Assembly (NCBI RefSeq): GCF_015207485.1
Contig: NZ_JADEWU010000005.1
Coordinates: 1 to 52,507 of the forward strand
Reading direction: 5' to 3'
Length of the DNA stretch: 52,507 bases
Source of the DNA: Planktothrix mougeotii LEGE 06226
GTDB lineage: Bacteria; Cyanobacteriota; Cyanobacteriia; Cyanobacteriales; Microcoleaceae
Notes under the pieces: model-generated
What the model was told of the DNA's origin: nothing
The model's input: only the letters and a program-made list of their open reading frames with translations
Database searches by the model: none
Shown: positions 3,236 through 52,507 of the stretch, piece by piece
How the letters are laid out: each line of letters opens with the position of its first letter
Position numbering within the stretch: position 1 is the first letter of the stretch
Translations under genes and position numbers: made by a program

Positions 3236-4606
3236 ATGTTTACTTCTTTCTTAGATGAATCAGAAGTTTTGTTTGAGTTTGAACCGCTTAATCCTGAAGC
3301 CTTACCCTTATCTTCTGAACAAATTGATCAATCCTTAGATTATTGCCGTTCTATTCTCAATGATCGAAAACAATGGCAAACCTATCTCAATTCTCTAGCC
3401 TTATTTGGGTTTCAGAATTGGTTAGAACAGCGTTCATCAGAACTGGTATTTAATTTAGAGCATCCTTCGTTAGAAAAACCTGAATTAGCTTATTTTATTG
3501 AAGCTGTTTGCCACTTAGCTGTTAATCAATTTAAAATCTGCTTAGTCGCCTTGGGAAATTCTAGGACGGATACTATTATTTTACCTAGGGCTATATTTGA
3601 ATTACCAGAATATAGGGCGCATTATTATATTTTAATTGAAGTTCAAGAAGAATTAGAAACAACCTCAATTTATGGGTTTATTTCCTATTCCGATTTTCAA
3701 ACCCATATAACACAGATTGATTTAGAACCCAAAGCAGATTGGACATATTCTGTTCCCTTATCTTGGTTTAACATAGAACCTGATCAATTTTTATTATTTT
3801 TACGCTGTTTAGAAGTGTCTGCAATTCCTTTACCAGAAATTCCAAATCCTGCAATACTATTATCTCAAATTCGAGAAGAATTAATTAGCAAACTTTCCCA
3901 ACTCCAATCCTCAGAACCCGGTATTTTTCCTGAATTGTGGCAAATTTTAACTTGGGAACAGGGAAAGATTCTTTTCAGTTATCCTGAATTACTGCGGTGG
4001 ATTTATGAAGTACAAAATCAAGTGAGTTTATCGGTACAACCGATTTCTCAATCTCCTCAAAATCCGGTTGCTTATTTAACAGATTTATTTGACTTATTAA
4101 CACAACCTGCGCTCAATTTAGCGCGATGGTTTAACCCGGAATTAGACACAATATCAACAGCTTTATCCTGGGTTTTTATTCCCAATTTTTCTCCAGAAAC
4201 CGCCTTGCGTGACGGAACTGAAATTTCCAGTTTAGTCAAACAACTCCAAGAAAATGGCGTCGAAATTTCTCCCCAAGCCAAAGGTGCTTATCGAGATTTA
4301 GGTTTAGGAGGACGTTCTCTACGATTATATGCTTTAACTTGGCCATTAGAATGGGAAATTGAACCCGAATGGACGCTATTATTAATATTAGGTTTACCTA
4401 CAGGAACGGATTTACCAGTGGGTGTGAAATTACGAGTCAGTGACGCCACCGGAATTTTAGTTGAACAAGATTTAAGTCGGGAAGATCAGTGTTCTTATTT
4501 ATTTACTCGTGTGGTCGGAACTTGTCAAGAAAAATTTGTGGTGACAGTGAGTTTAAGGGAAGATATAACAGAAACATTACCGCCTTTTGAATTTAGTTTC
4601 AATTAA
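3236..4606 (+). CDS. Hypothetical protein (operon member, no recognisable motif)
   Basis: 456 aa ORF tightly packed between flanking co-oriented ORFs (3 nt gap upstream, 20 nt overlap downstream). Confidence 0.4.
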   Translation: MFTSFLDESEVLFEFEPLNPEALPLSSEQIDQSLDYCRSILNDRKQWQTYLNSLALFGFQNWLEQRSSELVFNLEHPSLEKPELAYFIEAVCHLAVNQFKICLVALGNSRTDTIILPRAIFELPEYRAHYYILIEVQEELETTSIYGFISYSDFQTHITQIDLEPKADWTYSVPLSWFNIEPDQFLLFLRCLEVSAIPLPEIPNPAILLSQIREELISKLSQLQSSEPGIFPELWQILTWEQGKILFSYPELLRWIYEVQNQVSLSVQPISQSPQNPVAYLTDLFDLLTQPALNLARWFNPELDTISTALSWVFIPNFSPETALRDGTEISSLVKQLQENGVEISPQAKGAYRDLGLGGRSLRLYALTWPLEWEIEPEWTLLLILGLPTGTDLPVGVKLRVSDATGILVEQDLSREDQCSYLFTRVVGTCQEKFVVTVSLREDITETLPPFEFSFN

Positions 4607-7097
4607 GATTAAAAACCTAAATATGAATGCCATTGTTTCCCCTTTTTATCTCAAAGTTCAACGAGTTGAGCAGGTTTGCTTATTTCAATTATCTTGGGGA
4701 AAAGGGCAAAATTTGGGAGTCACCCTTCCCTATCCTGAACGATTAACTCAACTGTATCAAGAATGGCAATATATTTATCTAAGTTTTTATCAGAAAGCCC
4801 TGCGGGGTCGAGTGGAAGCGACCGGAAAACTTACCCAAAACCAAACAGATTGGCACGCTAAATTAGTTCAAGCAGAAGCAAAATTATTATATGAATTTCA
4901 TCGCTGGTTAAGACATGAAGAATTATATGAAATTCGAGCAACTCTGGCTAAAGCGACATCAAAGCAGAATTTAGAAACTTTACCCCGTCATCCCGGCGTT
5001 GGATTAGATATTGATGTGTTTCTCACCACTGACCCGATAGATGTGGCTCGACTTCCTTGGGAAGCGTGGGAAATTGGTACAGAATTTGCGGCGACTGGAA
5101 AAATTAGAATTGTTCGTCAACCGATTAATATTCGTCAGGTTACAACGACTTCCGAACACCGACCAACCCGCAACAAAGTTAGGGTATTAGTAATTTTAGG
5201 AGATGAAACGGGATTAAATTTTCAAGCTGATAAAGAAGCGGTGCGAGCGCTCGCTCCAATTGCAGAAATTCAGTTTGTCGGTTGGCAACCTCAACAAACT
5301 GTAATGGAGGTTAAACTCGCAGTTGTTAAAGCCATTCAAGATCAAAAAGGTTGGGATATTTTACTGTTTGCTGGTCATAGTAATGAAACGGAATTAACCG
5401 GAGGAGAATTAGGGATTGCGCCCTCAGTTTCGTTGTCCTTATCCGAACTGATTCAACCCTTAACTGTTGCCAAACAACGAGGCTTACAATTTGCTTTATT
5501 TAATTCTTGTAATGGCTTAAGTTTAGCGAATACCTTGATTGATTTAGGATTAAATCAAGTGGCGATTATGCGAGAACCTATCCATAATCAAGTGGCTCAA
5601 GAATTTTTATTACGATTTATTCGCAGCTTAACGGAATATCATGATGTTCATGATGCCTTATTATCCGCTTGTCAATTCCTTAAATTAGAAAAACATTTAA
5701 CCTATCCCAGTGCCTATTTAATTCCGTCCTTATTTCGCCATCCCCACGCTCCTCCGTTTAAATTACAAGCCTTAAGTTGGAAACAACGATTAAAACGATG
5801 GTTTCCGACAAAAAAAGAAGTCTTTGCCCTGACAACCTTATTAGTTATCGCTTGGCAAACTCCGATTCAAAATTTTTTATTAGAACGACGAATTTTGATT
5901 CAAGCTATTTATCGAAATTTAACTCATCAAATTCCAACTCAATCCTCTCCCCCCGTTCTATTAATTTTAATTGATGAAAAATCTATTCTAAAAGCTAAAA
6001 TTTCTAATCCAAGACCGATGGATCGAAGTTATTTAGCTGAGATTATTAATCAGTTAATTCAACTTAATCTGCAAATAATTGGCATTGATTATTTATTAGA
6101 TCGTCATCAACCTCAAAACGATCCCATTTTATCCCAATCTTTACAAAATGCAGTTCAAAATCATCAAACTTGGTTAATATTTGGAACCAGTAAAAATCCC
6201 ACCGGAGGATGGTTTGAAACCTTACCCGAATTAGCGAGTCCTAATTGGAGCTTACAAGGGGATTTAAGAATATTAGGTTATCCTCCCCTCTATACCACCT
6301 TACTGCCCCTTCCTGACTCTCGACAACAACCTTTACCCTTCGCTTATTTATTAGCTTTAGCGTATCAATTAAACGTTCAAGAACTTGAACCTCCTTCCCC
6401 TCAACTTAACTCATCCGTTGATTGGCTATCCCATTTAAAAGCCTATTTAATTGATAGTACCGGAACAGATTATCAAAGGTTATTTTCATCAAAAGCACGT
6501 TTACAACCGATCACAAATTGGGCATATTTATTAAAGCAATGGTGGTTTCATCCCCTGATTGATTTTTCAATTCCCCCAAAACAAGTGTATCAAAGTCTTC
6601 CCGCTTGGCAATTATTTGAGTCTCCAGAGTCTACCTTGAAACTTTCTACTCCCTTTGTCGTTCTAATTGCACCAGGGGGATATGGTGAAGCCGGAATTGC
6701 AACAGAAGGTCAGGATAATTTTCCTTTACCTATGGCATTAAATTATTGGTATTCTCAGGAAACACCACGCAATTATCGCCAAGTCTTACCGGGAGGTGAA
6801 GTTCATGCTTACATGACTCATCACTTTATTCAGCAACGATTTGTGATTCCCATTCCTGACCTTTTGCTGATTTTAATTGCCGCTTTATTCGGAAAAGGAG
6901 CGACTTTATCCTTAGCAACAGTTCGTCCTCAAAAAATAAAGTATATCCTGGTGTTTTTGGGATTAACAGGAATATATGGATTAGGGAGTGTACAGGTTTA
7001 TATTACAGGGGAACTTCTGCTTCCTTGGGTGTTACCAACTTTGATGTTTTGGATGTATATTTTTCTGACATTTGTGGAAAGGAAATTTTATGGCTAA
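4587..7097 (+). CDS. CHAT-domain (caspase-like His/Cys protease) protein fused to a CHASE2-like membrane sensor region with C-terminal TM helices
   Basis: 836 aa; caspase/CHAT-like dyad context DILLFAGHSNE ... QFALFNSCNGLS; internal hydrophobic segment (VFALTTLLVIAW); three C-terminal hydrophobic helices (LLLILIAALFG, ILVFLGLTGIYGLG, LLLPWVLPTLMFWMYIFLTF), consistent with TM-periplasmic-3TM CHASE2 topology. Confidence 0.55.
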   Translation: MNLVSIKIKNLNMNAIVSPFYLKVQRVEQVCLFQLSWGKGQNLGVTLPYPERLTQLYQEWQYIYLSFYQKALRGRVEATGKLTQNQTDWHAKLVQAEAKLLYEFHRWLRHEELYEIRATLAKATSKQNLETLPRHPGVGLDIDVFLTTDPIDVARLPWEAWEIGTEFAATGKIRIVRQPINIRQVTTTSEHRPTRNKVRVLVILGDETGLNFQADKEAVRALAPIAEIQFVGWQPQQTVMEVKLAVVKAIQDQKGWDILLFAGHSNETELTGGELGIAPSVSLSLSELIQPLTVAKQRGLQFALFNSCNGLSLANTLIDLGLNQVAIMREPIHNQVAQEFLLRFIRSLTEYHDVHDALLSACQFLKLEKHLTYPSAYLIPSLFRHPHAPPFKLQALSWKQRLKRWFPTKKEVFALTTLLVIAWQTPIQNFLLERRILIQAIYRNLTHQIPTQSSPPVLLILIDEKSILKAKISNPRPMDRSYLAEIINQLIQLNLQIIGIDYLLDRHQPQNDPILSQSLQNAVQNHQTWLIFGTSKNPTGGWFETLPELASPNWSLQGDLRILGYPPLYTTLLPLPDSRQQPLPFAYLLALAYQLNVQELEPPSPQLNSSVDWLSHLKAYLIDSTGTDYQRLFSSKARLQPITNWAYLLKQWWFHPLIDFSIPPKQVYQSLPAWQLFESPESTLKLSTPFVVLIAPGGYGEAGIATEGQDNFPLPMALNYWYSQETPRNYRQVLPGGEVHAYMTHHFIQQRFVIPIPDLLLILIAALFGKGATLSLATVRPQKIKYILVFLGLTGIYGLGSVQVYITGELLLPWVLPTLMFWMYIFLTFVERKFYG

Positions 7098-16432: not shown

Positions 16433-17800
16433 TTACAAATTATTCTGAATTAATTCTCGATATAAACTCTTGGGTTTCACACCTTTGAGGTCTTGAATTA
16501 AATCCTTATTTTTGAACATTTGTAGGGTTGGAGTCCCAACTACCCCCGCGTTTTGAGCAATTTCAGGATCTTCTTCAATGTCAATTTCGACATAATGAAT
16601 TTTACCCTCAAATTCACCAACCACTTTATCTAAAATTGGTTTAAGCGCATGACAGGGCCCGCAGGTGGGTGAGGCATATTTTACCACAATTAAGCGATCG
16701 CTATCATGGTAAAGTTTCCGCAAGGCATAACCCCCCGTATGGCGGGTATTTTGGATATCAAAATTTTCAGAAGTGGTAATTTGAGGTTGGGTTGAAGGTG
16801 TCGTTTCTGCTGCTGGTTCAGAAGTTTCTGTTTGTTGAACTTCCTGCGCTAACCCATTAATCGATAACCACCGCTCTGCTAACATCGCTCCCATACAACC
16901 ACTTCCAGCGGCTGTAATGGCTTGACGAAACTCATGATCTTGGACATCCCCAACCGCATAAACCCCCTCAACGCTGGTTTCAGGAGTGCCATGTTTTGTA
17001 ACAATATATCCCACTTCATCCAGTTGTAATTGTCCTTGGAAAATTTGGGTATTGGGAGTATGACCAATGGCATAAAATAACCCCTGGACGGGTAAATCCT
17101 GTTGTTCTCCCGTTTGGTTATTCTTAATTTTAATCCCGCCTAATTTATCATTGCCATAAACATCCACCGCTTCCGTATTCCAATGCACCGTAATTTTAGG
17201 ATGCTGAAGAACCCGTTGCTGCATAGCTTTACTCGCCCGCAATTCATTTCGTCTGACTAATAAATGAACATGGGTGGCGTATTTAGTTAAATAAACGGCT
17301 TCCTCGGCGGCGGTATCTCCTCCCCCAATCACCGCTAATTCTACACCTTTGAAAATTGGACTCGCCCCATCACAAATGGCACAGGCGGAAATTCCCGCAT
17401 TCCAAAAGGTTTCTTCCTGGGGTAAATGCAGCCGTTTCGCCGTCGCCCCCGTTGCAATTACAATGGTATGGGTTTTGATTTCCCGGTCTTCAGATTTAAT
17501 AGTAAAGGGACGTTGACTTAAATCAACGGAAATCACATCTTCGGTAAACAGTTCCGCCCCCCACCGTTGAGCTTGGGCTTTGATTCTATCCATGAGTTCC
17601 GGCCCGGTAATGCCTTCGGGAAAACCAGGGAAGTTCTCAACTTCTGTGGTGGTCATTAACTGACCCCCCGGAATTCCCCCGATTTGATAGCCTTCAAAAA
17701 CAACGGGTTTCAAGTTCGCCCGTCCTGCATAAATCGCCGCCGTGTAGCCCGCAGGCCCAGAACCAATAATGACAAGATTTTCAACAGTTGGGTTTGTCAT
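16433..17800 (-). CDS. ntrC: NADPH-dependent thioredoxin reductase C (TrxR fused to thioredoxin)
   Basis: 455 aa; N-terminal FAD motif [21 protein letters not shown], TrxR redox CAICDG, and C-terminal thioredoxin module with [12 protein letters not shown] (CGPC). Confidence 0.85.
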
Positions 17801-17892
17801 TTTTCTTATTTCAAACTCATAACGACTTCGTTTAAATCAATTATAGCAGTTTTTGTCCTAAGATGGCGAGGGAGCCACAGATTCCCATTCAA

Positions 17893-18255
17893 TTAACCAA
17901 TTTCTTTCTCATATTGAGTGATCACCTCTTCAATGGTTTCATGACTAATATCTGAGTAATCAGATTTGGAATAAATGGTAGCGAGAATGATGGCTTGATT
18001 TGTTTTCAGATAATAAATAACTCGATAGCCCCCACTTTTTCCTTTTTGGATATTACTATTTTTAAGACGAACTTTAAAAACGGTATATTTAATACCTGCA
18101 ATTCTATCACCAGGAATTTCACCTGCTTGAAGTTGTTCGATTAACGGTTGAAGATCGGTACGAATTGAACGATAGCGTTTAGCAAGTTCTCGAAGATCCC
18201 TTTTGAAGCGGGAAGTAAGCGCGATTTGGATGGGTGGTGGTTCACTCAACATCAA
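17893..18255 (-). CDS. Type II toxin-antitoxin system RelE/ParE-family toxin
   Basis: 120 aa; KGKSGGYRVIYYL motif typical of the RelE/ParE/HigB superfamily; 14 nt overlap with the upstream small ORF. Confidence 0.6.
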   Translation of the reverse strand: MMLSEPPPIQIALTSRFKRDLRELAKRYRSIRTDLQPLIEQLQAGEIPGDRIAGIKYTVFKVRLKNSNIQKGKSGGYRVIYYLKTNQAIILATIYSKSDYSDISHETIEEVITQYEKEIG

Positions 18256-18523
18256 TACCTTCCCACATTTCTGAGAGCGGAATAGTCTGTCCTGTTAATG
18301 CTTCCCATAAACCTTGGCGAATACCTTCTATAACAATTTCAGTCGGCGTTTCATTGGGGTCAACTTCGTCGTCTTCAGGAATTAAGACAATAACCCGAAC
18401 ACGCTGTGGTTTAGTAATTCCTAATGATTGATCAAGTGTCAGTTGCCCACTCTCATTAATAGTCGCTGTCGTTTCAATTGCTCTCATAACCGTTGATAGT
18501 TTACTCAAACATTTTTTAATCAT
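18242..18523 (-). CDS. Putative antitoxin partner of the RelE/ParE toxin
   Basis: 93 aa ORF immediately upstream of, and overlapping, the toxin gene on the same strand (classic antitoxin-toxin order). Confidence 0.5.
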   Translation of the reverse strand: MIKKCLSKLSTVMRAIETTATINESGQLTLDQSLGITKPQRVRVIVLIPEDDEVDPNETPTEIVIEGIRQGLWEALTGQTIPLSEMWEGIDVE

Positions 18524-36443: not shown

Positions 36444-37631
36444 TCAGGACAAATCACCCCCCATATTTTGATAGCGTTCTACCATTTTACAAGCGGCTTG
36501 ATACTGTTTTTGGGCAAGTTCTGGTGGAGATAAAACCTGTGCTAAGTTTAAATATTGATTGACCCAAATCATAAATTCATTGAGTGATCGAGAAGGTAAC
36601 TGAATTTTATAATCTACAAATAATAGTTTCCCCTGTTCATCTTTAATCGTCTTAATTTGTTGACGAATATGGCGACGCTCCCCTTCTAAAATAAAATTAG
36701 TAGCGGGAGGAAAAAAGCGAATATGAACCAATTTTAAAGGCAGTTCTCCCGCAAGTTCCTGTTGTTGTTCGACTGCATTCCCTAAATTTAATCCCCATCC
36801 TTGGTTTAATAATTGATGAGCTTTTTGTAAATTATTATATTGTTCTTGGAGAGGTCGAGATTGGGATAAAAATTGGCAATAATCTCGATAGCGGTTGATT
36901 CGACCAATCGTGAGTTGACCGTTTTCGCAGGATTCATAGACCAAATACCAAGCAATATTAAAATGAATCAGTTGTAATGGCCAAATTTTTACTAATCCAA
37001 TTTGTCCAGAATTATAGGGGTCACTGAACCGAGAAATTTCAATGGCTTTTCCAGTGAGAATTGCCTCTTCAATCTGATCTAATTGATGAAAAAGAGTATT
37101 TTGTACATTGCCCATTTCCAACATTTCATCCGGGTCAGTCCACACAATAGAACGGTTGAGTTGTTGTCGAACAGGATAGAAAAATTCTCCTTTTCGTTCT
37201 AAGTTAACCCCTCGTAATCGCTTTTCTAAAGTTTCGCAAATTCGTCTCGTTTTGGAGTCCGCTTGATATTGACTCAAGGAAACTAACAGTTGAAACGCAA
37301 CTTGTAATTCCTCCCAACTCATCACACCTGTTCCGAGATAATAACCCCAACGGTACATTCGCTGTTCGAGAATGCTGTAGCGCCGTAGGGTTTCGATATC
37401 TTTACGAATTGTTGGTAAAGCGGGATAACCCGGAGGAAGGTTAATTTTCAGTTCAGAGGCAAGCTGCTGTAAGTGATATTGGACATCTGATAGAGCATTC
37501 CGATGTTCTCCTTTCTGAGTTGGGGGAGTGTTACCAACCCCTGGATATTGAACCAAGGTGGCAATTAATAACATCAATCGCTCAAAGGCTTGTTGATCTG
37601 AATAGGAATGGCGTGTTGGCTTTTTAGCCAT
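36444..37631 (-). CDS. WYL-domain transcriptional regulator, divergent from the cmr operon (putative CRISPR-Cas regulator)
   Basis: 395 aa; literal WYL tripeptide in the context IAWYLVYESCENGQLTIGRINRYRD, which fits the WYL-domain consensus (WYL ... R ... R.). Position immediately upstream of, and divergent from, cas10. Confidence 0.5.
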   Translation of the reverse strand: MAKKPTRHSYSDQQAFERLMLLIATLVQYPGVGNTPPTQKGEHRNALSDVQYHLQQLASELKINLPPGYPALPTIRKDIETLRRYSILEQRMYRWGYYLGTGVMSWEELQVAFQLLVSLSQYQADSKTRRICETLEKRLRGVNLERKGEFFYPVRQQLNRSIVWTDPDEMLEMGNVQNTLFHQLDQIEEAILTGKAIEISRFSDPYNSGQIGLVKIWPLQLIHFNIAWYLVYESCENGQLTIGRINRYRDYCQFLSQSRPLQEQYNNLQKAHQLLNQGWGLNLGNAVEQQQELAGELPLKLVHIRFFPPATNFILEGERRHIRQQIKTIKDEQGKLLFVDYKIQLPSRSLNEFMIWVNQYLNLAQVLSPPELAQKQYQAACKMVERYQNMGGDLS

Positions 37632-43431: not shown

Positions 43432-45411
43432 ATGGCTTTTGATCGACCCAGAAGACCAGGACAAACCCCACCAGCGACCTCTCGCCCTAACCAAGCAGTT
43501 CAACGTAATACGTCTCGACCAACTCCTCCAAATTCTAATCGTTCATCAGGTGGTGATGGGGGTCGCAGAGGAGGAGGAAGCAATGGCGGTGGCGGTGGCG
43601 GCGGCAATCAACCTAATCTCCCGTCCCCTTGGTTAGATTCTGACAATGAACCTTCGCCAGATAAAACGGCCAGTTTTGTTGAATATTTGCGTTGGATGCG
43701 TTCCCCTGATAGTGGCTATAAAGACGCGACAAAAGTTCAAATTTTACAAATGGCGGAGGAAAACGCTAACTATCAACAACGTCTGGAACAATTAACAGAC
43801 CGAACTCAATTAATTGCCGGAAAAGAAAACTGTTTTAAAGTCAAATGTCCTTGGCGAATTCGAGTCGGAGGACATCGGGGGCCAGAAAGTATTTTACTTC
43901 CTGCTTTTGATGCCTTGGGAATGCCTTATATCCCGTCTTCTAGTTTGCGAGGTGTGGCAAGAAATCAAGCTATTCGGGAAATCATGTCTAAGGAAAAAGT
44001 AGACTGGAAAGAAGCCGAGAAACAGATTGCCCCTTGGTTTGGTTCTCTTGAGGAAGAAGAGAAAGATCGCTCTGGAAAAGTGATATTTTTAGATGCCTAT
44101 CCTCTTCCTAAACAAGATGGGTTAACCGTTGATATGGCTAATAATATTTGGAAATGGGAGGGAAATGATTTCAAGTATAACCCTAATCCTAATCCATTTT
44201 TATCTTTAAAAGAACCGATGTTTTTAATGGGTTTACGGTTAGCTATTGGATGTACTGATATTGAAGTTTTAAACCAAGTTAAGAAATGGTTAATTAAAGG
44301 ACTACAAGCCGGAATTGGTTCTCAAGTGAATACGGGTTATGGAGAACTGATGAAAGCGGGAGAAGGACGACCGAAAGAGGAGTTTTTCAGCTTAGATTTT
44401 ACCCTACAAGGTCAACTCATTCATGGGCGACAAAAGTTTACTCAATGGAACTGGAATGATAACCGTCAAGAATGGCAAATGCGAGGTCAAGCAGAAGCAG
44501 AGGTGCGTCCTGTTGCGTTTAAATCCATGTTGAGATATTGGTTTAGAACTTTAGCATTAGGTGTTTTACCGATAGGAGAGGTTTCGACTTGGGAAAATAA
44601 GTTATTTGGAGGGATTAATCCTCAACGGGAATGGGGTTGGGTTAAAGTTGAAATTTTAGAAGGAAAAGTGACTCAAAAAGAACCTAAACCTAATTATCAA
44701 GGTAAAAATGATCCTTGCGGAGAACAGGAAGGAACCTTAACCCTTTCCTATGGAGTCGGTTGTCCAACTGATCCTAAAACTCGACAAGCCATCAATACAT
44801 TAATGAAGAATTTAACTTGGTTAATGTTTCATTTAGGAGGGATTGGACAGGGAGCAAGACGACCGTGCTATTCTCGTCAAACCCGTGAACGTGCCCCTTG
44901 GTGGAGAGGCTCAACGTTAATTCCTAATGATGATGATTCCTTCTGGGAATTACCTGATAATGTTCTAGCGTTTAAAGAGAAATGTGTCACTCATTTACAA
45001 AAAATTTATCAAGCCATTTCTCAACTGTTTAATATTCCTAATCTTCGTCCGATTAATAATCCCATTAATCTAGGACAAGTGCGTCAAGATAACTGGAAAG
45101 AAGCCATTGATGCTAACTGTCGGATTATTGTTTGTGCTGGGAAGTCTCAACAGGAGAAACCTTATGCTTTAGGAGTGTTACATAGTCCTGATTTTAAAAT
45201 TACTAAAGGTCAATACAAGGATTATGACGGTAATTTATGTGGTCAAGTTAGCCGAGGGGTTAAACCTTCTCCTGTTTGGATTGCAGATCTAGGAGATTAT
45301 CAAGTTGTAACAATATTTGGAGCGACAGAAAATCCTCGACAGCGTTATATTCAGGAGTTGCGATCGCGCACTTCCAAGGATAACTTTGCTCAAATCTGGC
45401 CATTAAATTGA
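43432..45411 (+). CDS. cmr6: Cmr6-like Cas7 RAMP, unusually large (659 aa) with N-terminal Gly/Arg-rich low-complexity tail; possibly a Cmr6/Cmr1-type fusion
   Basis: RAMP motif GMPYIPSSSLRGVARNQ; G-rich loop HLGGIGQGARRPCYS; N-terminal SSGGDGGRRGGGSNGGGGGGGNQ; no separate cmr1 gene in the locus. Confidence 0.6.
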   Translation: MAFDRPRRPGQTPPATSRPNQAVQRNTSRPTPPNSNRSSGGDGGRRGGGSNGGGGGGGNQPNLPSPWLDSDNEPSPDKTASFVEYLRWMRSPDSGYKDATKVQILQMAEENANYQQRLEQLTDRTQLIAGKENCFKVKCPWRIRVGGHRGPESILLPAFDALGMPYIPSSSLRGVARNQAIREIMSKEKVDWKEAEKQIAPWFGSLEEEEKDRSGKVIFLDAYPLPKQDGLTVDMANNIWKWEGNDFKYNPNPNPFLSLKEPMFLMGLRLAIGCTDIEVLNQVKKWLIKGLQAGIGSQVNTGYGELMKAGEGRPKEEFFSLDFTLQGQLIHGRQKFTQWNWNDNRQEWQMRGQAEAEVRPVAFKSMLRYWFRTLALGVLPIGEVSTWENKLFGGINPQREWGWVKVEILEGKVTQKEPKPNYQGKNDPCGEQEGTLTLSYGVGCPTDPKTRQAINTLMKNLTWLMFHLGGIGQGARRPCYSRQTRERAPWWRGSTLIPNDDDSFWELPDNVLAFKEKCVTHLQKIYQAISQLFNIPNLRPINNPINLGQVRQDNWKEAIDANCRIIVCAGKSQQEKPYALGVLHSPDFKITKGQYKDYDGNLCGQVSRGVKPSPVWIADLGDYQVVTIFGATENPRQRYIQELRSRTSKDNFAQIWPLN

Positions 45412-45421
45412 TTTATACTTT

Positions 45422-45460
45422 TAGTAGCTAGTTTTAAAAAAGCTAACTACTAATTTTTTC
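45422..45460 (+). terminator. Rho-independent terminator candidate downstream of cmr6
   Basis: TAGTAGCTAGTT-TTAAAAAAG-CTAACTACTA imperfect hairpin (8 of 9 bp) followed by ATTTTTTCC. Confidence 0.4.
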
Positions 45461-45473
45461 CATTGGATTAACT

Positions 45474-47186
45474 ATGTTAACAGAATACCAATTAACCAAT
45501 TTTAAAGCGTTTTCTAAAACGAAACCGATTCCGATCCGGCCGATCACGTTGATTTATGGCCCTAATTCTTCTGGTAAAAGTTCTATTATTCAGTCTTTAC
45601 TGTTACTGAAACAAACCTTACAACAGGCAGAAAGCCCTAATATTATCCTAATCCCTAAAGGAAATTTAGTTGATTTAGGCAGTTATCGAGACTTTGTATA
45701 TTGCCATGATGTTAGTCAACCTTTTTCAATCCAAGCAACGTTACCGTTTCAGCCGAAAAAATTATTAGAAAAAGGTTGGGCTTTAGAACAGCTACAAGAT
45801 ACTACAGAACTGAAAATTAGAATTAACTTTGCTTATGATGCAGAACAATCACAAATTGTTTTTGATTCAGTTTTGTTATTTATTAATCACCCAACTATTC
45901 CTTTAATTTCTTATAAATGCCTAGAGGGAGATCCTAAGTTTTTAGTTTTAGATCAATTTAACCCAGAACATCCTCTGTGGCAAGGTTGGTGGAAAGAAGC
46001 AAAAAATAAAATTCCCAAAAACTTTAGAAACAAGGTCAAATCAATTCTTAAAGAATTAGGCTTTAATGAGGCTAAAAGAAATAATGCTGCTAAAAATCTA
46101 GTAATTGTAGAGAACAAAATTAAAGAACTAGAAGTTGAAATAAAAACCATTTTAGATCAGATAGAATTAGCTAAATCTAACTCAGATAATAATCTAGTTT
46201 CTAGCTTAAAACAAGAGTTATCTTCTCTCAATTATAAATTAGACGAATTCAACGCTATTAAAATTTTATCTCATCGCTTTGATAATTATAATATTAAAGA
46301 GGGAATAGAGGATTTATTTCTAGTCCAATCCTATTTATTTGGAGTTGAAAATCGAAATTTTTTACCCTATAGTTTATATAAAGAGGAAAAAGCAGATGAT
46401 CAAAATTTTCAGCTAAATTATCTATCCGAAGTTTATTCAAAGTTAGATTCTAAGGATTGGATATCAGATTTAACAAAAATTATCGATCCTGTGTTTCGAG
46501 GATGGATGGAAAAGATTGTTTATATTGAGCCATTAAGAGATTATCCAGAACGATTTTATATCTTTAGTGATTATTCGGGAAGCCAAGTTGGAAAAGAGGG
46601 TTCCCAAATTTCTAATTTATTATTCAATAACCCTCAATTGATTGAGCGTATTAATCAACAATTCAAAAATTTTAAATTAGGTTATGAAGCAAAAATTGTT
46701 AAGTTTATAGATGAAGAGGATTCAACAGGAAGCAATCTTTTTGCTATTCGTCTTTATGATGAATTTACCAAGGTTAACGTCAGTATTTTAGATGTTGGTT
46801 TTGGGATTAGTCAAGTTTTACCGATTCTTGTTCAATGTATGTTTTCTCATCAAAAAACAATTTTAATTGAACAGCCAGAAGTCCATATTCATCCTCGGCT
46901 ACAAACTGAAATAGGTTCACTTTTCGCCGAATGTATTAAGCTTCCCTATGAGAATCGATTTATTATTGAAACTCATAGTGAGCATTTAATTCTTAGGCTT
47001 CAAAAATTGATTCGTAAAGGAGAGTTAAAACCTGATGATATAGCCGTGATTTATGTTGATCGTTCTTCGGAAGGGTCTAACTGTTTAGAGTTAAGACTTG
47101 ATGAAGATGGTGACTTTATTGATGAATGGCCACATGGATTTTTTGAAGAAGATTTTCAGGAGATTTTTGAAAATTATGCTTTATAG
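45474..47186 (+). CDS. ABC/OLD-like ATPase (AAA_21-type) without fused nuclease domain
   Basis: 570 aa; N-terminal LTNFKAFS...ITLIYGPNSSGKSS (Walker A); C-terminal ILIEQPEVHIHPRLQ (Walker B / D-loop-like, IDEPE..LHP pattern) and IIETHSEHLIL (H-loop), the hallmark layout of AAA_21/OLD-family ATPases; AT-rich. Confidence 0.65.
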   Translation: MLTEYQLTNFKAFSKTKPIPIRPITLIYGPNSSGKSSIIQSLLLLKQTLQQAESPNIILIPKGNLVDLGSYRDFVYCHDVSQPFSIQATLPFQPKKLLEKGWALEQLQDTTELKIRINFAYDAEQSQIVFDSVLLFINHPTIPLISYKCLEGDPKFLVLDQFNPEHPLWQGWWKEAKNKIPKNFRNKVKSILKELGFNEAKRNNAAKNLVIVENKIKELEVEIKTILDQIELAKSNSDNNLVSSLKQELSSLNYKLDEFNAIKILSHRFDNYNIKEGIEDLFLVQSYLFGVENRNFLPYSLYKEEKADDQNFQLNYLSEVYSKLDSKDWISDLTKIIDPVFRGWMEKIVYIEPLRDYPERFYIFSDYSGSQVGKEGSQISNLLFNNPQLIERINQQFKNFKLGYEAKIVKFIDEEDSTGSNLFAIRLYDEFTKVNVSILDVGFGISQVLPILVQCMFSHQKTILIEQPEVHIHPRLQTEIGSLFAECIKLPYENRFIIETHSEHLILRLQKLIRKGELKPDDIAVIYVDRSSEGSNCLELRLDEDGDFIDEWPHGFFEEDFQEIFENYAL

Positions 47187-48201
47187 AACAGTAATTTCAC
47201 CTTCAGTCTTTAACATTACAGAAAGTAATTCTTCTCAGTATAGGTTCGTTATAAGTTTACTTAAAGACTTAGACAAAAATGGGTTGATTTTAGTAGATAA
47301 AAATGATAGAAATGAAGTTTTGTTTCCTCAAATTCTACAATATGTAGAAAACTGGGATACAAGATTTAAAATTCCTGCAAAAAAATTAATAAAGAAATTA
47401 CGAGAAAATAACCGTATCATTAAAATCAGTGATTTTTCTCAAGTTCATAATACTCCTATTACTTGTGGATATATAGTTGATCAAATTGCGTTAAAATTTA
47501 GTCCTGATGCCATTTTCTCAACACAAAATTGTTGTATTAATAATAAAATTAATCAAATTGATATTATGGATTATGTTATATCTGGATTTGATGATAAAAT
47601 TCAATCTTATGATTTTAGCCTTAATCAAGGACAATGGACTAAGGAAATATTTGAAAATGAAGTCTTGATTTCATTATTCAAAGATGCTAAATACATTAAA
47701 CTTTATAATCGCTATATTGGAAGAACAATCTTGACAAAGAATAGAGGATATAGAAATACTTTAAACTGGATTCTTGATGTATTTATTAGAGAGTCGAATT
47801 TTCTGAAGCCAGGTGTAAGCAATCGAGTAATATTTGAAATCTATACAGGGATACAAGTTGGTGGCAAACAAGGTTTATCAACATCAGATTTATATTCTGC
47901 TATTACGGCTATTAGAGAGTTAGAAAAACAACTCTATAGAAAATTGACTTTACAAAAAAGCAATGCAGATGTTAAAATTTATATCAAAAAAGAAAACGAT
48001 TGCGATAACCCTAAAACATTTCCTCATGCTCGTTATTTATTTACTGATCAAATCGGTTTGTGTATAGATAGAGGCTTTGATCTTTTATATTCGCCAGATC
48101 AGAATTCTATTCCTTCTTTAATTAAGGATCTTCATATTTCTTATCATTCAGATAAATCTAAAATCGCAAGAGAAGTAAATCAGCTTGAAGATTTACTGTA
48201 A
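47176..48201 (+). CDS. Uncharacterised partner protein of the ATPase (342 aa from Met-27; ORF extends upstream to 47098), translationally coupled
   Basis: In-frame ATG at 47176 overlaps the ATPase stop (47184-47186) by 11 nt; AT-rich; no motif recognisable by eye (no HNH Cys/His pairs, no obvious TOPRIM E...DxD). Confidence 0.45.
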   Translation: MLYRTVISPSVFNITESNSSQYRFVISLLKDLDKNGLILVDKNDRNEVLFPQILQYVENWDTRFKIPAKKLIKKLRENNRIIKISDFSQVHNTPITCGYIVDQIALKFSPDAIFSTQNCCINNKINQIDIMDYVISGFDDKIQSYDFSLNQGQWTKEIFENEVLISLFKDAKYIKLYNRYIGRTILTKNRGYRNTLNWILDVFIRESNFLKPGVSNRVIFEIYTGIQVGGKQGLSTSDLYSAITAIRELEKQLYRKLTLQKSNADVKIYIKKENDCDNPKTFPHARYLFTDQIGLCIDRGFDLLYSPDQNSIPSLIKDLHISYHSDKSKIAREVNQLEDLL

Positions 48202-48239
48202 TTAAATTTTTGTAAAAATAATCTGAGGATTTAATTTTT

Positions 48240-49712
48240 ATGTCTCAACAATCAATTTTAGTTGCAACGATTGGAACCCGTGATTTAAGCTTCCAAATTA
48301 CTTCGGGAAAATGGTATAACGTGGGTGATGACCGCATCCAAAATGGCGCAATTATTGGAGAACAGGCAGAAGTTTTATCTGATTTAGGATTTGCTGAGAA
48401 AAGCTATCGAGATTTGACCCAGTATTTGTTAGAAAATATTGACCAGTACCGAGAACGGGTTAAACCGATTATTTTTGGTAAAGTCTTTTTAGAACAAGGT
48501 CGAACAATCTCTAAAGTTTATTTAATTGCTACCAATCAACAGGAAGGAATTCGAGAACGAGAGAAAGATACTATTTATTCGGCTCAAATTATTAAAGCTT
48601 GGTTAATGGATAATTTTAAACATTTAAACAATGAAAAAATAACAATTATTCCATTAGGAGAAGATGGAACTAACCCTTCTAACTTTGAAGAAATGTTTCG
48701 CTGGTGGTCACGGGTCTGGCGAAATCAAATTCGGGTGAAAAAACAGTTGGTTTGGGTGTGTTTAAAGGGAGGAGTGGGTCAAGCATCGGAAGCAGCTAGG
48801 GTTTCGGGTTTAAGTTTATATGGCGATCGCATTCAATTTTATGAGTTTAAAGCAAATGCCGTCAACAACTATCAAGGAATTCCTTCTGATTATACTGGTC
48901 CGTTTTTAGGAACGAATTATCTTTGGGATAGAATTCAACAACAATGCTTAAAGTTATTAGAACGATTTGACTATGATGAAGTGTCTGATTTATTAGAGCC
49001 TTATTTTGAACAAGATCCTGAAAATTTTGGTAGTCTCCGCAATTTAGTTCAAGCGGGTATTCAATGGAATCAAGGTAATTTTCAAGATTTTTTCAGACGC
49101 TCTGAAAGTATTTTAAATCCTCCTCAACAAGATCAAGGACACTCCTGGTGGTGGATGGGATATGAACAAGCAATGTTAGGTGTGGTGAGATTTAAGCAAC
49201 AAAATACTGTTGAAGCAATGCTACACAGTTACCGAGCAATTGAGGGTACAATTTATTTATGGGCTATTCAGACTTTCCCGACTTTTGTTCAAAATCGAGA
49301 GGGTGAATATCTGAAAATTTCATCCTCAATCACTGAACGATATCCTCAAATACTTAAAGGGAAATACTTTCAATCTTCAGATTCAGAAGAATTAAAAGGT
49401 TGGTTTTTAGAAGATTTTATCAAAGCTGTTCTCCCAAGTACATCGAATAGCCAAGATTTTATAACTTTCTGGTCTTCAGCAAAAAAAATGAGAAATCAGC
49501 TATCTCATCGGTTAGGAGGATTAACAGAAGATGAACTTTTTAAAGGTTGGAAGGTTGACCTACAGATGGATTGTGAAAAGAGTTGGAAAAACCGAATTTT
49601 AAATTGTTTAAACACTTTGACTAGCCAGTCTTTTACGTCCTTAGAAGGAGCAAGTTTATTCATCAGAGTTCATCATTATCTTATCAATAAAATTAAGCAA
49701 TATGAACCCTAA
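48240..49712 (+). CDS. csx1: Csx1/Csm6-family CARF-HEPN ancillary ribonuclease
   Basis: 490 aa; N-terminal QSILVATIGTRDL (CARF-like Rossmann start); C-terminal KKMRNQLSHRLGG contains the R-x4-H HEPN motif; location inside a type III locus whose Cas10 retains GGDD. Confidence 0.6.
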   Translation: MSQQSILVATIGTRDLSFQITSGKWYNVGDDRIQNGAIIGEQAEVLSDLGFAEKSYRDLTQYLLENIDQYRERVKPIIFGKVFLEQGRTISKVYLIATNQQEGIREREKDTIYSAQIIKAWLMDNFKHLNNEKITIIPLGEDGTNPSNFEEMFRWWSRVWRNQIRVKKQLVWVCLKGGVGQASEAARVSGLSLYGDRIQFYEFKANAVNNYQGIPSDYTGPFLGTNYLWDRIQQQCLKLLERFDYDEVSDLLEPYFEQDPENFGSLRNLVQAGIQWNQGNFQDFFRRSESILNPPQQDQGHSWWWMGYEQAMLGVVRFKQQNTVEAMLHSYRAIEGTIYLWAIQTFPTFVQNREGEYLKISSSITERYPQILKGKYFQSSDSEELKGWFLEDFIKAVLPSTSNSQDFITFWSSAKKMRNQLSHRLGGLTEDELFKGWKVDLQMDCEKSWKNRILNCLNTLTSQSFTSLEGASLFIRVHHYLINKIKQYEP

Positions 49713-49889: not shown

Positions 49890-50171
49890 ATGTATATTTC
49901 TAGTCGTGCCATTGTTGTTCGGAATTTTGCGATCGCTATTGTCAACGGAACCGTTACCTTAATTATTTTATTGATTGCGCCTTTGGGATTAATGGCTGTC
50001 ATTAGTAATACGTTTTTAGTCACTGTTGCTACTTTCTTTACGGCTACTATCGCCGATGGAATTATTCGATTTCTCCAACCTTCTCGCTCTATGGGGGAAT
50101 TTCCTTTACATCAGGATACTCCCTATTCTTCTGAATTAGAGTCTCGTTCATCCCATGAAATTGATCGCTAA
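49890..50171 (+). CDS. Small 2-TM hypothetical protein directly upstream of cas1
   Basis: 93 aa; two hydrophobic helices; stop at 50171, 3 nt before the cas1 ATG; contains a HIP1 site. Confidence 0.35.
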   Translation: MYISSRAIVVRNFAIAIVNGTVTLIILLIAPLGLMAVISNTFLVTVATFFTATIADGIIRFLQPSRSMGEFPLHQDTPYSSELESRSSHEIDR

Positions 50172-51773: not shown

Positions 51774-52507
51774 TTCCCTACTCGTTAGGGAAATTAATTG
51801 ATTGGAAACATCTCTTAACATTAAAGCTATTAAAACAGCTGCAATAATTCCCTACTCGTTAGGGAAATTAATTGATTGGAAACTTAATGGCAAACGAACA
51901 ATATTTCTTATCCAGCAGCAGGTTTCCCTACTCGTTAGGGAAATTAATTGATTGGAAACCAACAACAACCCAAGGTTCATTCATATAAACTCCGTTATTG
52001 AATTCCCTACTCGTTAGGGAAATTAATTGATTGGAAACACGTCGGTCCATCACACGCAGAGCAGCCTTTTGATAAGGCTTTTCCCTACTCGTTAGGGAAA
52101 TTAATTGATTGGAAACTTACGTACTAAAGGGTGGAATGTAACATTTATCCCATTTGATTCCCTACTCGTTAGGGAAATTAATTGATTGGAAACCGGAATT
52201 GATAAGGAAGTTCAGCCCCTGCTTGTTCATTCCCTACTCGTTAGGGAAATTAATTGATTGGAAACATCAACCCAATCAGGGTTGCACATATCTTCAGGTT
52301 CGAGTTGAACTTCCCTACTCGTTAGGGAAATTAATTGATTGGAAACCATGCTTGTTTAGGAGTGATATCCACTTTAATAAACTTCATTATTCCCTACTCG
52401 TTAGGGAAATTAATTGATTGGAAACTGGTCTGCATATATACAGCCACCATTTCTAGTAGCCATATTTCCCTACTCGTTAGGGAAATTAATTGATTGGAAA
52501 CATCCAT
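51774..52507 (+). CRISPR. CRISPR array, at least 10 repeats of 36 nt (TTCCCTACTCGTTAGGGAAATTAATTGATTGGAAAC), spacers 36-45 nt, truncated by the window end
   Basis: Repeats at 51774, 51848, 51924, 52003, 52081, 52158, 52230, 52311, 52390 and 52466; unique spacers of 38, 40, 43, 42, 41, 36, 45, 43 and 40 nt; repeat has an internal CCCTA-CTCGT-TAGGG hairpin and a GAAAC 3' end. Confidence 0.95.

Follow-up and report, generated by a model that had tools for sequence, protein, structure and literature searches.

What is a two-gene cassette doing between cmr6 and csx1 of a cyanobacterial type III-B CRISPR operon, and how long has it been there? The question is raised by a 52,507-nucleotide (nt) stretch of Planktothrix mougeotii LEGE 06226 (contig NZ_JADEWU010000005.1, positions 1 to 52,507; hereafter the window), in which genes for an ABC-type ATPase and a partner protein lie on the same strand as their neighbors, cmr6 on the left and the CARF-HEPN gene csx1 on the right. 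A sequence-only reading had proposed a recent horizontal insertion of either a diverged Septu- or PARIS-type system or an uncharacterized one. We find that the nearest relatives are instead NsnB and NsnC of Menshen and the two-gene system HEC-03, which that reading did not list, and that the pair is long resident in the slot after cmr6 of some cyanobacterial III-B operons, not recently inserted there. Taken as a whole, we think it probable that the cassette is a sensor-less (NsnA-less) effector module gated by its ATPase, of the Menshen NsnB/NsnC and HEC-03 class, stably kept in the post-cmr6 slot and probably autonomous.

The ATPase gene, open reading frame (ORF) A (45474-47186, + strand), encodes 570 amino acids (aa), and the partner gene, ORF B (47176-48201, + strand), encodes 341 aa. 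The ATG of ORF B at 47176 overlaps the stop codon of ORF A (TAG, 47184-47186) by 11 nt, the tight coupling already proposed from the letters. A mechanical ORF list also offers a TTG start at 47098 for the partner; because Met1-Leu2 is kept in 87 of 90 homologues, we place the start at 47176. A database protein from Planktothrix mougeotii is identical to ORF B.

The translation of ORF A carries the motifs claimed for it: Walker A GPNSSGKSS (residues 29-37; 45558-45584, + strand), the Walker B/D-loop segment ILIEQPEVHIHP, and ETHSEHL. Pfam recognizes AAA_15 (1.5e-19), AAA_21 (2.5e-18; a family annotated as AbiEii/type IV toxin-antitoxin toxin domain) and, at residues 518-559 (47025-47150, + strand; ...FIDEWPHGFFEEDFQEIF), the helical DUF3696 tail (1e-05), a predicted clamp for the N-terminal domain of the partner. 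The protein also has a coiled-coil-like insert. PADLOC places NsnB first (5.7e-60), followed by HEC-03B and PDC-M55A (1.1e-54 each), with AriA (1e-22) and GajA (6e-8) far weaker; no NCBIfam model comes near its cut-off, and PtuA and MAD3 score far below theirs. Menshen NsnB is described as having this same build, an ABC ATPase that carries a DUF3696 helix (PMC12065111). There is no fused TOPRIM domain in the protein, whose C-terminal end is DUF3696, and the tail is kept in 14 of the 14 lineages compared. These results show an NsnB/HEC-03-like ATPase with a DUF3696 tail, and Pfam and PADLOC agree with the earlier description of a two-gene, defense-type module of ABC ATPase and effector, lacking a fused TOPRIM, within a type III-B operon.

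The partner is the harder of the two proteins to place. Scans of the window partner against Pfam, PADLOC, NCBIfam and PHROGs returned nothing, even at E 10. An exhaustive profile search with it recovered 670 cluster representatives at E <= 1e-3 and 345 at E <= 1e-10, most of them full-length at ~330-350 aa, which rules out the very rare family suggested by word-indexed searches (7-9 proteins, with the partner, a 7-sequence profile and a 90-sequence profile as queries). Residue conservation and family scans were based on an alignment of 90 family members. Pfam MIT_C is the sole family matched by more than two of these (8 of 90, best 4e-4), and the PADLOC NsnC model is matched by 13 of 90 (best 8e-7). 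Four partners from the III-B slot match NsnC (L019, 8e-8; L073, 4e-6; L014, 5e-6; L066, 1e-4), and the L014 partner additionally matches MIT_C (1.6e-4). The PADLOC model for the second HEC-03 component matches neither the window partner nor any of the 90 relatives. Pfam and PADLOC detected no TOPRIM/DUF4435 or HNH effector in the pair, and a CARF, SAVED or other known nucleotide-sensor domain was found in neither protein.

An AlphaFold 2 model built from the 90 sequences replaced a 7-sequence model that had a predicted local distance difference test score of 68.9 and a poor N-terminal half. Structural matches of the N-terminal half (domain at residues 1-150; 47176-47625, + strand) are PIN domains, including VapC AF1683 (8.3), HARP (7.2), SMG5 (7.1) and many other VapCs. 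This half has a Pro after strand 1 and retains one conserved acidic residue, which leaves it without the D-E-D-D catalytic site. For the C-terminal half (residues 151-341; 47626-48198, + strand), a PLD-superfamily domain that is MIT_C-like and resembles "PB-PLD1", the best structural match is MITD1 MIT_C, and Foldseek against the Protein Data Bank (PDB) gave a marginal PLD match only (E 3.5e-3). It contains an HKD-like H-x-R-x4-D motif, H284-A-R286-YLFT-D291 (48025-48048, + strand), with H284 in 89/90, R286 in 90/90 and D291 in 67/90 aligned sequences (N in 15); D178 (89 of 90 sequences), T290, Q292 and G300 are also conserved. The partner, as modeled, joins an inactive PIN domain to a domain of PLD/MIT_C fold that bears an HxRx4D motif. 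The earlier statement that the partner holds no familiar motif stands for HNH, TOPRIM and PD-(D/E)xK and falls for the HKD-like H284-x-R286-x4-D291 in a PLD fold; nor is the fold unknown, since structure prediction finds PIN plus PLD.

A PDB profile search had suggested E. coli RNase HI for partner residues 16-105 (E 0.003); we regard this as a chance helical match, the confident model being a PIN fold. The PIN-like domain also carries a four-Cys cluster (C-x4-C ... C-x2-C; residues ~97-120 in the window, alignment columns 149, 158, 188 and 191), each Cys occurring in 70-85 of the 90 sequences and three of the four being retained in the Planktothrix-like group. This cluster may bind zinc.

The position of the pair proved to be shared well beyond Planktothrix. 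We assembled 80 species-representative cyanobacterial loci with a long Cmr6 and counted the 60 with at least 2.5 kb downstream: the gene directly after cmr6 is the ATPase in 10 (17%), csx1 in 13, orf93/cas1 in 2 and some other gene in 35. Because such varied genes follow cmr6, this site is a variable accessory slot in which the pair is one recurrent occupant. Among the sources of loci with the pair are Symploca, Spirulina, Nodosilinea, Halomicronema and Pseudanabaena. The order cmr6-ATPase-partner-csx1-...-cas1-cas2 recurs in metagenome contigs whose partners are 82, 54, 52 and 34% identical to ours, and the slot is occupied also in lineages with an ATPase identity of only 33-47%. The closest species-level relative found, L013 (Cmr6 82% identical), has an empty site: csx1 begins ~18 nt after cmr6, with a shared csx1 leader/junction, GAGGATTTAATTTTTATG. 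Among other contents of this accessory region, the pair-less L069 encodes a DUF262-like protein of DGQQR type (16539-18410), and Uma2-family endonuclease genes lie at 9521-10174 in L011 and at 4500-5189, between cmr6 and the ATPase gene, in L059.

Where the pair is present, it has diverged together with its operon. Identity clusters of Cmr6, ATPase and partner are congruent, and Mantel tests over 11 independent lineages correlate Cmr6 with ATPase (r 0.53, p 3.5e-4) and ATPase with partner (r 0.70, p 5e-5). Within the Planktothrix-like group, synonymous divergence (dS) of the pair is 0.2-0.8 (ATPase 0.2-0.64), similar in magnitude to that of the cas genes. The ratio of nonsynonymous to synonymous divergence (dN/dS) lies at 0.20-0.25 in the ATPase, 0.30-0.45 in the partner and 0.12-0.25 in cas genes. 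Because dS resembles that of the cas genes and the low dN/dS indicates purifying selection, we consider both genes functional and long resident. At the flanks of the pair we found no integrase, repeat or other mobility signature. Along the window (43432-49712), dS against L001/L006 forms a mosaic, at 0.49-0.87 for cmr3-cmr6, 0.205 for the ATPase and 0.24 for csx1, which suggests within-operon recombination between strains.

The base composition that had pointed to a recent arrival is real. Fractional G+C content (GC) is 0.309 in the ATPase gene and 0.278 in the partner gene versus 0.34-0.41 in cas genes, GC at third codon positions is also lower, and the pair lies 9-10 GC points under its flanks. 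The HIP1 sequence (GCGATCGC) occurs 24 times in the window versus 0.19 times expected by chance, with no site within 45367-48823; the HIP1 positions reported earlier were right within 1-7 nt. In the window alone this gap is within chance (~1.25 sites expected, P(0) = 0.29), and three other gaps are larger. Across 16 loci, however, none of 214 HIP1 sites falls in the pair, whose share of the sequence is 17% (binomial P = 4e-18), and in 16/16 its GC is 7-17 points lower than in the remainder of the locus, at host GC of 0.38-0.56. Against the immediate flanks the dip reaches ~20 points (L026, 0.37/0.36 vs 0.54-0.57; L077, 0.33/0.33 vs 0.52). Among copies outside CRISPR loci, L103, L108, L109 and L117 share the GC dip, and L113, L115 and L116 do not. 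Because it is constant in all 16 loci whatever the host GC, the GC/HIP1 break does not date the insertion. By the standard of the sequence-only reading itself, a pair conserved in position across all related III-B loci and without a compositional difference would not be a recent insert; half of this holds, as the position is kept, though only in 10/60 loci, and the compositional difference is retained. Candidate explanations for the absent amelioration are selection acting on how a toxic effector is expressed, repeated gene conversion from a pool of AT-rich alleles, and a general AT bias of defense genes. The partner was not found in a scan of viral contigs, nor in phages or plasmids by tblastn, which leaves a phage or plasmid source of the AT-rich DNA unsupported.

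Within this stable position, the effector itself is exchanged. L001/L002 and L006 have ATPases that are 100% identical and Cmr6 proteins that are 96% identical, whereas their partners share only 55%; that of L006 is 82% identical to the L005 partner, though the L005 and L006 ATPases share 77%. At the DNA level, L002 and L006 are 100% identical through cmr6 and the ATPase gene, fall to 49-80% in the partner gene and return to 95-100% in csx1. The swapped segment is 2801-3880 of L002, the equivalent of 47176-48201 in the window. Between L002 and L006 only the effector has been replaced, cleanly, by another allele. Partner identity is 50-87% over residues 1-30, 22-44% over the hypervariable residues 31-150 and 38-60% over the PLD half. 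At greater distance at least three partner families occupy the slot, all starting with an ML...P-x-VF segment.

To see where else the pair occurs, we turned to loci outside cyanobacterial III-B operons. A DUF3696 ATPase lies directly upstream of the partner in 28/28 metagenome loci; the two genes are always adjacent, with junctions of -11 to +6 nt. The gene upstream of the pair is cmr6 in the window and HsdS, RAMP, SIR2 or others elsewhere. In L096 (542-9035) and L098 (422-4968) the pair closes type I restriction-modification operons of the order hsdR-hsdM-hsdS-ATPase-partner, and in L116 a SIR2 gene adjoins it. L117 (1-8621; GC 0.64, metagenome) provides a second, non-cyanobacterial type III-like context, the pair following genes for a RAMP protein (553 aa) and a RAMP protein with a cold-shock domain (759 aa), ~12-15 GC points below its flanks. 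NsnA, a ParB-DUF262 protein with a DGQQR-type ORF, was detected neither in the window nor in any pair-bearing locus examined. L119/L120 (584-8573) encode an RtcR-like activator (CARF-type RtcR domain, sigma-54 AAA+ and HTH_8) followed by two tandem ATPase-partner pairs, of which the first partner (4729-5685) is not recognized by the partner profile. Plasmid DUF3696 ATPases of Bacillus and Aeromonas form two-gene modules in Abi islands with unrelated partners; for the Bacillus partner, a relation to ours was rejected by hhalign of the partner profile, which found no similarity.

How might such a pair work? In the mechanism we propose, ATPase dimers or tetramers would hold the partner by its conserved N-terminal segment and inactive PIN (inPIN) domain via paired DUF3696 tails. 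Being held would keep the single-HKD PLD domain, whose active site would need dimerization, monomeric and inactive. A phage cue would be read by the ATPase inserts, the hypervariable inPIN surface or both; an ATP-dependent change would then release or dimerize the partner, and the freed partner would cut nucleic acid. The clamp role of DUF3696 comes from AlphaFold 3 models of NsnB4-NsnC2 (PMC12065111), and the parts conserved here are the DUF3696 tail and partner residues 1-30, indirect support for the predicted clamp. The pair probably acts alone, like the two-gene HEC-03, while being co-expressed and co-inherited with type III-B; we favor autonomy with co-expression because restriction-modification operons host the same pair and HEC-03 is active on its own. 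The pair may form a back-up layer, or it may stand guard against agents that inhibit the CRISPR system.

Several observations weigh against this account of a sensor-less, ATPase-gated effector. The window partner itself matches no NsnC, HEC-03 or Pfam model, and its membership rests on fold and relatives. Arg invariantly takes the place of Lys in the HKD-like motif, so that catalysis is at most a prediction; MIT_C of MITD1 is a membrane-binding domain that to our knowledge is not a nuclease and has no catalytic activity. Gating via DUF3696, release and dimerization are inferred, being borrowed from Menshen predictions, PARIS and Septu. The window effector may be attenuated by N178 (codon AAT, 47707-47709, + strand): 89 of 90 sequences have Asp at this site, the most conserved acidic one, and its closest relatives L001, L005 and L006 have GAT there. 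Finally, the strict post-cmr6 position, together with abutting or overlapping cmr6 and ATPase ORFs in several lineages, fits coupling to III-B equally well.

That last point leads to the alternative of a true III-B ancillary module, in which the Cmr complex or Cas10 products would replace NsnA as the sensor and target-RNA binding would license effector release, giving a CARF-independent output. We hold this to be unlikely, although it accounts for much: the pair is always right after cmr6 on the same strand, with ORFs that abut or overlap in L034, L043, L102, L026, L066, L073 and L099; it co-diverges with Cmr6; it takes the same relative place in L117, an unrelated RAMP-encoding locus of high GC; the HD (residue 14) and GGDD (residue 784) motifs of Cas10 are intact, so that signaling is available; and Cas_RecF with cas_RFas beside crenarchaeal type III modules is a precedent (PMC6546367). 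It does not readily explain why neither protein has a known nucleotide-sensor domain, why the same pair sits in type I restriction-modification operons and other non-CRISPR contexts, why 50/60 sister loci lack it and fill the slot with many other genes, or why the related HEC-03 functions by itself. More doubtful still is the specific version in which the III-B complex took over the missing NsnA role, crRNA-guided recognition of phage transcripts being passed to the ATPase via the long Cmr6 or a Cas10 product, and a PLD-type nuclease then being released. If true, with Cmr as the sensor, it would add a CARF/SAVED-independent effector arm to type III CRISPR immunity, and strain-specific inPIN swapping would reflect an arms race with phage inhibitors.

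The pair could also be a selfish or decaying cassette, toxin-antitoxin-like, that stabilizes itself or the CRISPR locus and whose effector in the window is perhaps crippled (D178N, P166S) and would then play no part in defense. Besides N178, the window partner has Ser at position 166 (47671-47673), where 85/90 family members have Pro; the lasting AT-richness and sporadic distribution resemble those of mobile accessory genes, and the AAA_21 family bears the toxin-domain annotation given above. We nevertheless judge this reading improbable. The ORFs are intact and under purifying selection (dN/dS 0.21 and 0.30 versus the nearest relative), and the window partner is no overall outlier, its 3 deviations at conserved columns being matched by 14 other sequences; its validated relatives are defense systems. 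Asn sometimes replaces Asp in metal or phosphate coordination. The remaining alternative, the recent insertion of an AT-rich foreign cassette into the cmr6-csx1 gap of an older locus already ameliorated to its host, had the contrast in GC (0.30 vs 0.39), the lack of a HIP1 site, the clean empty site of L013 and the presence of the pair in only 17% of related loci to recommend it. We now consider it very improbable: the same slot is filled in deeply diverged lineages whose clades are congruent to Cmr6, ATPase dS in the Planktothrix-like group is comparable to that of cas genes, the GC dip and HIP1 absence in 16/16 loci are a standing property of the module, the HIP1 gap of the window is not significant by itself, and the flanks bear no trace of mobility.

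The surrounding type III-B system is complete in the window, comprising cas10, cmr3-6, csx1, a conserved 93-aa ORF, cas1 and cas2. The slot is defined by the 3' end of cmr6 (43432-45411, + strand), which encodes a 659-aa RAMP protein (Pfam RAMPs, 2e-17), and on the other side lies csx1 (48240-49712, + strand; PADLOC CARF1--CARF_HEPN, 2.1e-133), which directly follows cmr6 in pair-less loci. Cmr6 is unusually long, with a Gly-rich low-complexity stretch at ~residues 40-60 and a conserved extension at ~65-130 before the RAMP domain; this form is common to all 80 cyanobacterial orthologues, with or without the pair. In the gap between cmr6 and the ATPase gene, an AU-rich hairpin (45421-45453) with a T6 run (together 45421-45459, + strand) is a weak terminator or attenuator. 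Read earlier as a terminator, it exists as a structure (RNA fold centroid -11.4 kcal/mol, z = -2.26) and is weak in that role: the terminator scan did not call it because it fails the G+C rule, and it is present in L001 and L006 and absent both in L005 and in lineages whose ATPase start abuts or overlaps the cmr6 stop. The 93-aa ORF (49890-50171), immediately 5' of cas1, is without a Pfam match and is found in most related loci; it may be Csx18, the small adaptation-associated cyanobacterial III-B protein of Shah et al. 2019. Upstream of cas10, a 395-aa ORF (36444-37631, - strand) has a weak WCX-domain match (E 0.0055) and could be a WYL-type regulator of the locus. The CRISPR array starts at 51774, ~330 nt past cas2, and reaches the window end (52507), with at least 10 repeats (TTCCCTACTCGTTAGGGAAATTAATTGATTGGAAAC) at a period of 72-81 nt.

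These results place ATPase-gated effectors of the NsnB/NsnC type, surveyed so far only beside a ParB-DUF262 sensor or in Hma, in III-B operons, and extend "guilt by embedding" to CRISPR loci. Because the slot is conserved, empty sites occur in nature and effector alleles are swapped between otherwise identical strains, these loci offer a test system for asking whether such effectors work on their own, protect the system that hosts them or use its sensor. They also carry a caution, as a GC/HIP1 break in a cyanobacterial genome does not by itself date an insertion when the module stays AT-rich and HIP1-free over long residence.

Among known systems, PARIS (AriA-AriB) and Septu (PtuA-PtuB) provide the general scheme, in which an effector sits asymmetrically in an oligomer of the ABC ATPase until a phage cue leads to its release or activation (cited in PMC12065111). 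AriA models match our ATPase (1e-22); the effectors of PARIS, Septu and Gabija, by contrast, are TOPRIM/DUF4435 (AriB), HNH (PtuB) and fused TOPRIM (GajA), none of which is present here. Compared with MITD1 MIT_C and with single-HKD PLD nucleases (Nuc, NucT, BfiI, Zucchini, SauUSI and NgoAVII nuclease domains), the partner has Arg for the HKD Lys and an identity of 7-14%. Another parallel lies in archaea, where the SMC-like ATPase Cas_RecF and its cas_RFas partners adjoin crenarchaeal type III modules (Shah et al. 2019, PMC6546367): there too, an ABC/SMC-type ATPase and an adjacent small database-orphan protein are recurrently type III-linked, although the ATPase has ~330 aa and the partners ~160 aa, and the likeness drawn here is one of description. 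The CRISPR-embedded arrangement of the pair was not described in the literature we searched, a single library and hence not proof of novelty.

HEC-03 (Hma-embedded candidate 03) comes closer. It consists of an ABC ATPase and a PIN protein and protects against phage, with both genes required (Payne et al., bioRxiv 10.1101/2024.01.29.577857). Like our pair it has two genes, no sensor, an ABC ATPase whose model matches ours (1.1e-54) and a PIN-fold partner, and it is nested inside another multi-gene defense system, which is Hma and not CRISPR. Its partner is a VapC-like PIN protein, whereas here the PIN domain is without the acidic residues and fused to a PLD-like domain, and 0/90 partner family members match the model of the other HEC-03 component; membership in HEC-03 fails on the partner.

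The other near relative is Menshen, which comprises NsnA, NsnB and NsnC, including NsnC variants with inPIN and PB-PLD1 (Li et al., NAR 2025, PMC12065111). Full membership in Menshen fails as well, since NsnA (ParB-DUF262 plus ParBDB), its proposed sensor, is in none of the loci examined; because the Menshen census was seeded on NsnA (PMC12065111), sensor-less pairs lie outside its scope. The ATPase here also differs in size, at 570 aa against the 345 positions of the NsnB model, with a coiled-coil-like insert of ~200 residues, and its embedding in III-B CRISPR operons is a context unreported in PMC12065111. The likeness is otherwise extensive. Both ATPases combine an ABC fold with a DUF3696 tail, NsnB being the best PADLOC match. 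In both partners a MIT_C-like PLD domain comes after an inactive PIN domain, and the conserved acidic residue and the H-(D/A)-R motif are the same. The gene order from B to C and the tight coupling are shared, as is a hypervariable inPIN region with an effector that is shuffled between strains; the partner swapping seen here parallels reports on NsnC, in which inPIN and effector are shuffled. And Menshen, too, is frequently linked with other defense operons.

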